A DNA stretch of 64,000 bases, taken from NCBI GenBank assembly GCA_965228855.1, contig CBDDIJ010000002.1, forward strand, positions 1,344,001 through 1,408,000, given 5' to 3'. Position 1 is the first letter of the stretch. Each line of letters opens with the position of its first letter. Shown in pieces: positions 55,650 through 58,174 of this stretch. The translations under genes and the position numbers were made by a program. The stretch comes from Candidatus Obscuribacterales bacterium. GTDB lineage: Bacteria; Cyanobacteriota; Vampirovibrionia; Obscuribacterales; Obscuribacteraceae. The notes beneath the pieces were generated by a model. It searched no databases. It was not told where the DNA came from and saw nothing but the letters and a program-made list of their open reading frames with translations.

Positions 55650-55955
55650 TTACTCGGAGGATTCGCCGAGGAGTTCGGCTAGGAGGAGGCGGTATTTGCG
55701 CAGGTTTTCTTCGTAGGATTGGGTCGGGGCTGGGCGAACCGCTTCGGTTTCTTTCAGCCAGGGGGCGTGATCGTTCAGCGCCTCTTCGGTTACCCAGCGT
55801 CTGGCCAGCAAAATATCCTCGACATTCATCCCAGTTGCTTCATGGTCTGAAATGACGAGGTTTGCTTGCGCCTGTGAGATCACTTTGCTGTCGACGAGCT
55901 TACTCAACAACTCTTGATCACGGGCATCCAGGTTGTTTTGTTCGGGTGCGACCAC
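55650..55955 (-). CDS. Small protein with a degenerate MshEN/T2SSE-N-like repeat
   Basis: LVDSKVISQAQANLVISDH..MNVEDILLARRWVTEEAL. GTG start overlaps the KH stop (TAGTG). Confidence 0.55.
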   Translation of the reverse strand: MVAPEQNNLDARDQELLSKLVDSKVISQAQANLVISDHEATGMNVEDILLARRWVTEEALNDHAPWLKETEAVRPAPTQSYEENLRKYRLLLAELLGESSE

Positions 55956-56341
55956 TAAGAGACCACTATGTCGACTCGTTTTCCGTAGCGTCCGGCAGCC
56001 GCCTTGATCAGAAATCGCAGCGCCGAGATGGTTCTGCCGTCCTTGCCGATCAAGCGTCCAGTGACTGCAGGATCGCATTTGACGCTCACCCGGCTTCTGC
56101 GTGGACCGAAGCTCTTCCGTTCGAACATGAGCGAATCAGGCTCTTTGGCAAGAACCTTCAATATATACTCGGCCAGATCCTCAGGTGCCTGAGTCTGGAT
56201 TAGCTTTGTCGGGAAGCGCCTTTGGCCGCCGCTGCCCCCGCGGTACCCGCCGCCGGAGCCGCCGCGGTATCCGCCGCCGCTGCCGCCTTTCTTATAAGAC
56301 CCGCTACCGTATCGCTTGGTTGAGCGCCGTTTTTCATCCAT
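55955..56341 (-). CDS. khpA: KH-domain RNA-binding protein (KhpA/YlqC-like) with an N-terminal Gly/Tyr/Arg repeat
   Basis: [25 protein letters not shown] (GxxG loop), usual position after rpsP. The only in-frame canonical start upstream of the KH helix is ATG 56341. Confidence 0.85.
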
Positions 56342-56505
56342 CGGTCAACTGCTTCTCTATCTAATTTGAGTTCTTTAGATCGCGGATTGTAGTATCCGAC
56401 TTCTTCAATCGGTTTGCCATCGCGGCGCGTGCGTCCGTCTACAGCAACGATTCTGTAGTGTGGGGCTTTCTTGGCGCCTATGCGCTTAAGCCGAATCTTT
56501 ACCAC
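56200..56505 (-). CDS. rpsP: 30S ribosomal protein S16
   Basis: [36 protein letters not shown]. Ala-rich tail. Confidence 0.97.
56225..56287 (-). repeat. 24-nt tandem repeat (about 2.6 copies) in the rpsP/KH overlap
   Basis: ggc ggc agc ggc ggc gga tac cgc / ggc ggc tcc ggc ggc ggg tac cgc / ggg ggc agc ggc ggc. Confidence 0.9.
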
Positions 56506-56641: not shown

Positions 56642-58174
56642 TTACGGCTTGCGCTTTTTCTTGCGCAATTTGCGGCTACGACCGAATCCTGCCGGGTTTA
56701 CGCCGCCTGCGGTCGGTGCTTTGGGGGGTGTTCCAAAGGGGAGGCGCGGCATCCCTCCTGGCATTCCGCCAGGCATTCCACCTGGCATGCCTGGACCCTT
56801 GCCCATTGGTGGCATACCGGGAAATCCACCGGGCATTCCAGGGAAGCCACCGCCTGCGCCACCCATCATCATGGGTCGCATCATATCCATCATCTGTTTC
56901 ATTTTCTGAAAGTCATTTAATAACTGACCGATCTGCGCATCTTTGAGACCGCAACCTTTGGCGATGCGCCGTCTGCGTTTAAAATCGATGAGTTCCGGCT
57001 TCTTGCGCTCCTCTTTGGTCATGGAGTTAATAGCTGTCTCATACATCGACATCATCTGTTCGCCGTGCTCCGCGACGACTTTCTGTTGCGACGAATTGAG
57101 ACCGAACATACCGCCGACGCCCATCATTTTCATGATGTCGCCAATCGGTCCCATCTTCTTCATCATCTTTTGCATCTTGATAAACATTTCGAGCGTAAAC
57201 TCGCCCTTCAGCATGTCCATCGCGACCATCTCGGCTTCCTTCTCGTCGATATTGGCTTGCGCCTTTTCAACGAGTGACAGGACGTCGCCCATGTCGAGGA
57301 TGCGACCGGCCATACGGTCGGGATAGAAGGTTTCAAGATTGTCGAGTTTTTCACCTGTCGAGATAAACTTGATTGGTTTACCTACGATTTCTCTGACGGA
57401 GAGCGCGGCGCCGCCTCTGGCATCACCATCCACTTTTGAGAGAATCAAACCAGTCACGTCCAACTGTGTGTTGAATGTATCTGCGACGTTGACGGCTTCT
57501 TGACCAGTCATCGAATCGACGACGAGCAATTTTTCAATCGGCTCGCAGGCGCGGTCGAGAATCATCAGTTCAGCCATGAGGGCGGTGTCTACTTGCAGAC
57601 GACCGGCGGTGTCCAGAATTACCGGGTGTAGTCCTTCTTTCTTGGCGTGTTCAATTGCCTGTTCGGCGATTTCTTGAACGTCTGTCTGTCCGTGAATTGC
57701 GAAGACCGGGACGTCAATTTGCTTTCCGAGCGTTTCAAGCTGCATGATCGCGGCGGGACGTTGAACGTCGCACGCCACCATCAACGGTTTCATTCCTTCT
57801 TCTTTCAGCTTATAAGCCAGCTTCCCGGTTGCGGTCGTCTTTCCACTGCCCTGTAGACCAAGGAGCATGATTACAGCCGGTTTCCCATCTAAATTAATGG
57901 GGGTGTTCTCGCCACCAAGGATGGTGACAAGCTCGTCATGTACGATTTTGACGAATTGCTGCGTCGGGTTGACGCCCTCGATCACTTCAGCGCCAAGCGC
58001 CTGCTGTCTGACGCGGCTAATGAAGAGCTTGACCACTTTCAAGCTGACGTCCGCTTCAAGCAGCGATTTGCGAACATCGGCGATCGCCTCCTCGATGTTT
58101 TCCGCGGTGAGCTTGGCATCACCTGTAAGGTTGCGGAACGTAGAGTGCAGTTTGTCGGTCAATGTATCGAACAT
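56642..58174 (-). CDS. ffh: Signal recognition particle protein
   Basis: LLEADV, GLQGSGKTT, DTAGR, SKVDGDARGG, RRRRIAKGCG. GGMP-rich tail. Confidence 0.98.
   Translation of the reverse strand: MFDTLTDKLHSTFRNLTGDAKLTAENIEEAIADVRKSLLEADVSLKVVKLFISRVRQQALGAEVIEGVNPTQQFVKIVHDELVTILGGENTPINLDGKPAVIMLLGLQGSGKTTATGKLAYKLKEEGMKPLMVACDVQRPAAIMQLETLGKQIDVPVFAIHGQTDVQEIAEQAIEHAKKEGLHPVILDTAGRLQVDTALMAELMILDRACEPIEKLLVVDSMTGQEAVNVADTFNTQLDVTGLILSKVDGDARGGAALSVREIVGKPIKFISTGEKLDNLETFYPDRMAGRILDMGDVLSLVEKAQANIDEKEAEMVAMDMLKGEFTLEMFIKMQKMMKKMGPIGDIMKMMGVGGMFGLNSSQQKVVAEHGEQMMSMYETAINSMTKEERKKPELIDFKRRRRIAKGCGLKDAQIGQLLNDFQKMKQMMDMMRPMMMGGAGGGFPGMPGGFPGMPPMGKGPGMPGGMPGGMPGGMPRLPFGTPPKAPTAGGVNPAGFGRSRKLRKKKRKP

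Follow-up and report, generated by a model that had tools for sequence, protein, structure and literature searches.

A gene for a small KH-domain protein appears to begin inside the coding sequence of ribosomal protein bS16 in the 64,000-nt stretch of Candidatus Obscuribacterales DNA that we analysed (the window, to which all coordinates refer). The arrangement raises the question of whether the shared nucleotides encode two proteins and, if they do, how ribosomes enter the second frame and what the added residues contribute. A preliminary reading of the sequence without database searches had proposed that the KH frame is translated through the overlap, giving the protein KhpA a disordered RGG-type arm. 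Having compared the locus across its order and with outgroups, we put the probability of the full mechanism, in which internal initiation within rpsP gives KhpA a disordered arm that aids RNA binding, at roughly 0.78.

The rpsP/khpA locus

The two genes and the elements discussed below all lie on the minus strand:

56200..56505, minus strand: rpsP, ribosomal protein bS16, 101 aa, with a core of about residues 1-75 and an Ala-rich tail (TIGR00002, PF00886)
55955..56341, minus strand: khpA, 128 aa, with an N-terminal basic/Gly/aromatic arm (residues 1 to ~51) and one type II KH domain (PF13083)
56339..56341, minus strand: putative internal khpA ATG, made of the third base of S16 Arg55 (CGA) and the TG of Trp56 (TGG)
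56345..56347, minus strand: TGA in the KH frame, two codons 5' of the ATG, which bounds that frame
56287..56341, minus strand: dual-coded core, S16 core against the KhpA N-terminus, with KhpA M1, R10 and K18 invariant
56200..56286, minus strand: dual-coded tail, S16 Ala-rich tail and stop against the Gly-Arg-Tyr-Phe low-complexity arm of KhpA
56225..56287, minus strand: 2.6 copies of a 24-nt repeat that the KH frame reads as GGSGGGYR, a genus-level elaboration of the arm
56287..56292, minus strand: AGA-AAG, site of the proposed -1 shift, without conservation as a slippery sequence
56198..56202, minus strand: S16 stop TAA overlapping a KH-frame ATC (Ile48) as TAATC, a candidate non-AUG restart, not conserved
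55964..56182, minus strand: KH domain, alpha-beta-beta-alpha-alpha-beta, with the GKDG loop at residues 99-102 (56047-56036)
56642..58174, minus strand: upstream co-directional gene, likely ffh (ORF seen; context only)

The rpsP gene begins with GTG at 56505, and its product matches TIGR00002 over residues 2-75 (E 1.4e-30; 105 bits against a cut-off of 45.3). The khpA ATG lies 164 nt downstream of that GTG, in the -1 frame relative to S16, leaving 142 nt shared (56341-56200, minus strand). The ORF coordinates bear out both the length of overlap first described and the presence of a conserved S16 motif inside it, and we confirmed that no alternative start lies nearby: the next in-frame ATG, GTG or TTG is a TTG at codon 61, within helix 1 (residues 52-65). 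Contigs from 4 of 4 sequencing runs, from 4 studies, cover the overlap with no gaps and no differences within it, which excludes the assembly indel that the sequence-only reading had wished to see checked; runs X1 and X3 were also gap-free but were left out of this count as possibly the window's own source. Of the other runs, X18, the one labelled as RNA, consists of contigs and is probably DNA, and the raw reads of X21 leave the overlap uncovered.

The neighbouring ORFs have features of their own. The upstream ORF (58174-56642, minus strand), which by recognition of its sequence we take to be ffh, encoding the SRP GTPase, carries near its C-terminus a long repeat tail rich in G, M and P (GGMPGGMP...) and then a basic stretch. 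A small ORF just 3' of khpA (55946-55650, minus strand) has a weak MshEN-like c-di-GMP-binding match (NF053729, E 2.8e-5) that falls below the cut-off.

The KH protein is an extended KhpA

The KH ORF matches the Pfam family KH_KhpA-B (PF13083) over residues 54-126 (E 3e-16; 59.5 bits against a cut-off of 32.1), and its best match among the sequences of solved structures is the KhpA fusion 7xqc (E 3.4e-7). The predicted secondary structure is that of a type II fold (H52-65 E71-77 E82-89 H91-98 H100-117 E122-127), with an intact GxxG loop (G99-K-D-G102) whose two glycines are invariant in 54 proteins. Foldseek placed the KH model closest to the KH domains of KhpB, NusA and uS3, none at E<=0.001. 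At 128 aa, scoring 35 bits with PRK02821 and 32 bits with PRK00468 against a cut-off of 106, the protein falls outside the NCBIfam equivalog (~75-80 aa) in both length and score, and we therefore file it as an extended, divergent KhpA variant.

KhpA and KhpB are a textbook heterodimer pair. A KhpB candidate (L172:1435-2058) is encoded elsewhere in the genome, with an R3H match at E 6.8e-15 and KH scores of 31.7-33.4 bits, around the cut-off; no match to Jag_N was found in it. The gene beside it is, by recognition, presumably yidC. The candidate also has an acidic C-terminal tail, which could pair with the basic KhpA arm.

In the portions available to us, three preprints describe KhpA proteins as global RNA binders syntenic with rpsP (10.1101/2025.09.18.676964, 10.1101/2020.07.02.184192, 10.64898/2026.10.12.757534). 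The protein studied here resembles those KhpA proteins, as so described, in its single type II KH domain with GxxG, its position just 3' of rpsP, and a KH+R3H partner that adjoins yidC. Unlike the KhpA of the other families of the phylum that we compared, that of Obscuribacterales has a long overlap in the -1 frame that builds an N-terminal arm.

The internal ATG and the open frame are fixed across the order

We searched 107 genomes of the order, identified as Obscuribacterales by named relatives that are mostly labelled Obscuribacterales or Melainabacteria; 99 gave an S16 match, and all 99 loci, this genome included, were examined. An ATG stands at the same place in 99/99 (98/98 in the parsed set, plus L094), and the -1 frame is open from that ATG into the KH domain in 97/99, as a comparison of relatives should find if the overlap were real. 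Two hallmarks of a true long same-strand overlap, a conserved start and two open frames, are thus present. A KH domain lies 3' of S16 in 98/99 loci, and the overlap ranges from 67 to 154 nt (median 94) and occurs in both families of the order. The two exceptions to the open frame are L078, whose contig ends before the KH domain, and L097. In L097 (G084:C3:786500-787720) the A run at the S16 Lys/Arg pair has lost 1 nt, which interchanges the two frames: translation from the ATG would end at the S16 stop, and the KH domain is left without a canonical start. Either an error of assembly or a genuine loss may account for this break. Public protein sets already contain the long ORF, as 'KH domain-containing protein'.

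The bases that make up the start are held more tightly than S16 itself. The codon before the Trp ends in A in all 98 loci (AAA 66, CGA 14, AGA 11, CAA 4, ACA 3), compared with genome-wide use of AAA in 41% of K-W pairs and of A-ending codons in 26% of R-W pairs. On a 92-locus tree the A of the ATG changes 0 times while the overlying S16 residue changes 8 times, and nine upstream Lys/Glu sites change 6-19 times. Stop codons in the -1 frame are found in 0/98 loci within the 18 codons after the ATG and in 78/97 within the 18 codons before it, and the tree records 164 gains or losses of such stops before the ATG against 0 after. Synonymous resampling of S16 produced both the ATG and a fully open overlap in ~12% of trials per locus (7% for this one), compared with the 97/99 observed among kin that are not independent; because the genomes share ancestry, all of these locus counts overstate independence.

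Selection in the KH frame

Comparative data argue for selection on the KH frame throughout the shared stretch, as had been proposed. We compared 35 disjoint pairs, which take in 70 of 92 loci; of 95 full-length loci, 3 had been set aside because of parsing, truncation or the frame break. Changes that are silent in S16 and alter KhpA occur in the core at 0.37 (95% CI 0.22-0.52), and in the tail at 0.38 (CI 0.22-0.59), of the silent rate measured upstream in S16. Constraint is stronger on the KH domain itself (0.068 vs 0.37-0.38), and the linker coded only in the KH frame has an N/S of 0.21. The synonymous entropy of S16 drops from 1.32 to 0.72 bits within the overlap.

Single residues tell the same story. 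KhpA M1, R10 and K18 do not change on the 92-locus tree and are invariant in 71/71 distinct arms, while the S16 residues overlying R10 and K18 change 6 and 12-15 times; M1 and K18 are also invariant across 54 database proteins. At free third positions of S16 codons in the tail, T is used in 42/42 cases where KhpA Phe results (34% upstream), in 35/47 where Tyr results (27% upstream) and in 0/336 where Cys would result (14% upstream), counts drawn from 71 distinct overlaps that are related to one another. Codon choice in the KH frame keeps Phe and Tyr and excludes Cys.

Selection had first been suggested by differences between copies of the 24-nt repeat. From 56287 the repeat reads GGSGGGYR / GGSGGGYR / GGSGG in the KH frame and AAAAADTA / AAPAAGTA / GAAAA in the S16 frame. 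All differences between copies are indeed silent in KhpA and alter S16 (A/P, D/G, A/G); at three codon sites they are too few to count as proof, 28% of single-base changes in the repeat unit are silent in either frame, and AGC/TCC is a two-base change. The case for KH-frame selection is carried by the comparative data, not by the repeat.

The S16 Ala-rich tail is also constrained

The Ala-rich tail of S16 had been thought a possible by-product of selection on KhpA. We found that changes in the tail that are silent in KhpA and alter S16 are suppressed about as strongly, at 0.37 (CI 0.19-0.63) of the linker silent rate, with a constraint ratio between the two frames of 0.84 (CI 0.57-1.37). KhpA Gly codons are 80% GGC, which reads Ala in S16, within the tail and 27% GGC just beyond the S16 stop. 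The S16 tail is therefore not just a by-product. Of 17 tail indels, 15 are multiples of 3 and keep both frames. Alignments of such low-complexity sequence absorb differences as gaps, slippage in GGC repeats can enrich Gly and Ala together, and doubly silent tail sites (8 differences on 14 sites) are too few for use. With these readings of the tail, the sequences indicate that purifying selection acts in both frames of the shared 142 nt.

A basic, probably RNA-binding arm

Across the order the arm has 35-57 aa, and its net charge is at least +4 (median +8; 71 distinct arms). Its consensus is MD(E/Q/K)xRx(P/S)x(K/Q)Rx(G/S)xx(P/S)(F/Y)(K/Q)KG, followed by a G/R/aromatic stretch; in 27/71 arms the sequence runs on past the S16 stop as a long linker, mostly rich in R and G. 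AlphaFold assigned pLDDT values of 44-47 to residues 1-40 and 90-95 to the KH domain; low pLDDT is only a proxy for disorder, and the suggestion of a disordered arm stands as a prediction. The RGG repeat fared less well as a conserved feature. YRGG is a genus-level trait, present in 8/8 same-genus loci; among the 71 distinct arms of the order, RGG occurs in 17, RG in 48 and at least two RGG in 5 (this locus has 2). What appears to be shared order-wide, judging from the encoded sequences, is a basic R/G/aromatic arm.

RG/RGG-type regions, which are Arg/Gly-rich, aromatic-studded, basic and disordered, add low-specificity RNA affinity. The KhpA arm shares their basic, Arg/Gly-rich, aromatic-studded composition and, by prediction, their disorder, and it is likewise attached to a folded RNA-binding domain. 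It differs in that strict RGG is found in 17/71 arms, that RNA binding is only predicted, and that the arm is coded in the alternative frame of another gene. Given translation, we lean towards the arm being an auxiliary RNA-binding segment.

The main rival is that the arm is a tolerated passenger, translated from the ATG, kept because that is the only start left, and selected merely to be soluble and stop-free. Its variable length and low-complexity sequence fit such a passenger, as do its weaker constraint relative to the KH domain, the existence of canonical short KhpA homologs that have no such arm (L131-L150), and the fact that S16 poly-Ala automatically reads as G/S/R/C in the -1 frame. 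However, solubility and an open frame do not call for an R10 and a K18 that never change beneath shifting S16 residues, for the choice of Phe at every opportunity and Tyr at three in four, or for a mostly R/G-rich linker that in 27/71 arms extends past the overlap, where N/S in the KH-only linker is still 0.21. A short restart at the S16 stop is, moreover, one mutation away in some loci (TAATC) and is seen in none. We judge the passenger reading improbable, and favour an arm that assists RNA binding.

Ribosomes very probably enter the KH frame at the internal ATG

Internal initiation at 56341 was one of two entry routes first put forward, and several lines of evidence point to it: the ATG is fixed in 99/99 loci, its A is unchanged on the tree, and no other start is conserved. 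Translation from this ATG is, on sequence grounds, very probable, and we infer the start from its conservation. A conserved downstream non-AUG start was tried as a candidate and ruled out: ATC, ATT or ATA overlaps the S16 stop in 10/92 loci, this genome (TAATC) included, and 64/92 have neither another canonical start nor a CTG or ATH after that stop. Also ruled out was an internal promoter or terminator in rpsP, within which we found no promoter-like sites, the counts being at shuffle level.

The start sits where rpsP is folded least: its mean MFE is -2.5, whereas the corresponding site in outgroups has -6.8, and it was less folded than a synonymous null in 31 of 36 loci tested. Its Shine-Dalgarno pairing is weak, at -2.9 kcal/mol in this locus and a median of -3.9 in the order, where real starts have -5.2 and rpsP has -6.4. 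A strong internal Shine-Dalgarno was looked for at the khpA start and not found. The order median for upstream context falls at the median of the genome's 711 heuristic starts, and this locus at the 35th percentile. In the part of PMC10666635 available, termination-reinitiation coupling is associated with very short overlaps; with the S16 stop 142 nt away, this favours de novo initiation.

Two further observations concern the start region. At S16 codon -5 (56354-56352, minus strand), 12-14 nt 5' of the ATG, Glu is GAA in 90/90 loci, and E-A pairs genome-wide use GAA in 65%; since GAG there would create a GAGG Shine-Dalgarno core, an A-rich, Shine-Dalgarno-poor start may be selected. The start itself reads ATGGATG (56341-56335, minus strand) in 57/92 loci. 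The second AUG, in the S16 frame, is an internal S16 Met, dispensable in that it is missing in 35/92 loci, and could yield a short C-terminal S16 peptide.

The other proposed route, a -1 shift at AGA-AAG just after the S16 core that would yield an S16-linker-KH fusion, did not survive as the main entry to the KH frame. Single-tRNA shifting at CGA-AAG has a precedent in B. subtilis cdd, the site is followed by a GC-rich tract, and S16 codon +16 ends in A in 95/95 loci; that fixed A is explained by the invariance of KhpA Lys18. A shift needs neither the ATG nor the 17 stop-free codons upstream of the site, yet both are fixed. The heptamer varies across 92 loci (A-AAA-AGG 31, A-AGA-AAG 30, C-AAA-AAG 11, A-AAA-AAG 1), with an Arg codon (AGG/AGA) at its end in about half, and the tract 3' of AGA-AAG folds like its shuffles (z 0.15), so that we found neither the conserved slippery site nor the stimulator of a programmed -1 frameshift. 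Among the best 120 homologs listed (70-224 aa searched), none has an S16 Pfam domain or exceeds 132 aa. We regard the shift as very unlikely to be the main route, although a minor S16-KH fusion product may accompany internal initiation.

A restart of khpA at the non-AUG codon in TAATC would give an arm-less 81-aa KhpA and leave the upstream ATG unused. Stop and ATC share bases in the classic -1 arrangement, at least 4 database entries of 73-82 aa among the matches listed are called from later starts, and very short overlaps are those that couple translation (PMC10666635, in the part available). Such a restart is nonetheless hard to credit, as an ATH stands there in only 10/92 loci and 64/92 lack any candidate, and it leaves unexplained both the fixation of the ATG and selection on the KH frame upstream of the stop. 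Two readings that do without a second protein, constraint on a nucleic-acid structure or binding site (in RNA or DNA) and an assembly error, to which the invariant GAA 5' of the ATG and the GC-rich tail might point, are largely refuted by a pattern that follows the -1-frame amino acid (T for Phe and Tyr, never for Cys), the lack of excess folding or of a promoter-like site in rpsP, gap-free contigs from 4 studies and the same geometry in 97/99 genomes.

Origin of the overlap

At 31 loci from other orders of the class there was no KH gene 3' of rpsP within the stretch examined, and PF13083 was above its cut-off in 0/78 genomes of those orders, within which KhpA and KhpB may both have been lost. 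At the homologous place in other orders an ATG is present in 7/27 loci, and a -1-frame stop falls within 18 codons in 23/27.

In 20 loci from other families of the phylum (L131-L150, likely Sericytochromatia, a name that is inferred) canonical starts of khpA lie between -4 and +24 relative to the S16 stop. Four of these (L138, L142, L146 and L147) have, in addition to this usual start, an open -1 frame for which the same S16 Trp supplies a GTG. This GTG is possibly a precursor state of the overlap, the raw material for it. Among likely cyanobacterial loci (L151-L170), khpA lies 3' of rpsP in 19/20, 16 of them in the +1 frame with mostly short overlaps. Candidate starts in L151-L169 are often at -8, -11 and -38/-41, and at -62 in L162, and the encoded proteins have long basic R/P/S-rich C-terminal tails, an extension possibly separate from, and convergent with, the Obscuribacterales arm. 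With canonical starts near the S16 stop or mostly short +1 overlaps in the outgroups, we take the long -1 overlap as a likely derived feature of the order.

A fixed ATG in the rpsP core and purifying selection in both frames suggest that ribosomes initiate de novo within the S16 coding region and that KhpA likely bears an arm that is new, basic and floppy. In this model the ancestral khpA would have begun at the rpsP stop and captured the -1-frame start offered by the S16 Trp, by overprinting, before the split of the order's two families, and the arm and the S16 tail would then have grown jointly by in-frame indels. Present-day initiation would use the A-rich, unusually unstructured patch with its weak Shine-Dalgarno, and would be independent of S16 termination because the stop lies 67-154 nt downstream. 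It would produce KhpA with a ~50-residue Gly/Arg/aromatic basic arm, predicted to be disordered, that adds low-specificity RNA affinity to the GxxG groove of the KH domain, and the partner of this protein would be the KH+R3H KhpB coded elsewhere in the genome.

Discussion

The Thermus rnpA/rpmH overlap also gives an RNA-binding protein an N-terminal extension. As far as its treatment in PMC9841429 goes (citing Feltens et al. 2003), that pair has one shared initiation site with rpmH fully nested, and it is the closest genetic precedent for rpsP/khpA. In both, a ribosomal-protein gene shares same-strand, out-of-frame sequence with the gene of an RNA-binding protein, and the AUGGAUG string recurs in 57/92 of our loci. 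The case differs from that account in that khpA opens 55 codons into rpsP, with sharing limited to the 3' part of the latter; there is no common start site, since rpsP begins at its GTG (56505) with its own Shine-Dalgarno (median -6.4).

Within the available text of PMC2478687, no co-directional overlap was accepted as real among 715 longer than 60 bp, the longest real one being holD/rimI (32-56 bp); rpsP/khpA, at 67-154 nt, order-wide and with indications of selection in both frames, differs from the overlaps accepted there. The available part of PMC2542354 describes 5' extension through a phase-2 start that a Trp codon supplies, and explains why it is rare; khpA appears to have been extended in this way. 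The literature we searched (subscription journals and bioRxiv supplements, KhpA synteny figures included, lay outside its scope) held no account of the rpsP/khpA overlap. The long ORF is already called in databases, and the overlap itself is undescribed in that literature.

More tentatively, and at a probability we would call low, the overlap may also be regulatory. The weak, unstructured start would compete with ribosomes elongating S16, so that KhpA tracks ribosome synthesis; the arm, born de novo in the shadow frame of S16, would be a eukaryote-like RG arm that docks on RNA or the 30S subunit, and a minor S16-KH fusion made by -1 shifting could contribute a form tethered to the ribosome.

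When long overlaps between same-strand genes turn up in bacteria, they tend to be written off as errors of annotation. The one described here is fixed throughout an order and takes in ~20 codons from the conserved core of S16, an essential ribosomal protein. About 100 genomes, together with outgroups that keep the ancestral short arrangement, make it a clean natural case of overprinting and two-frame co-evolution in a cellular genome, and it offers a testable design for initiation within a highly translated gene. Two lineages of the phylum appear to have extended KhpA with basic disordered tails at opposite ends of the protein, which bears on how KhpA acts as an RNA chaperone.
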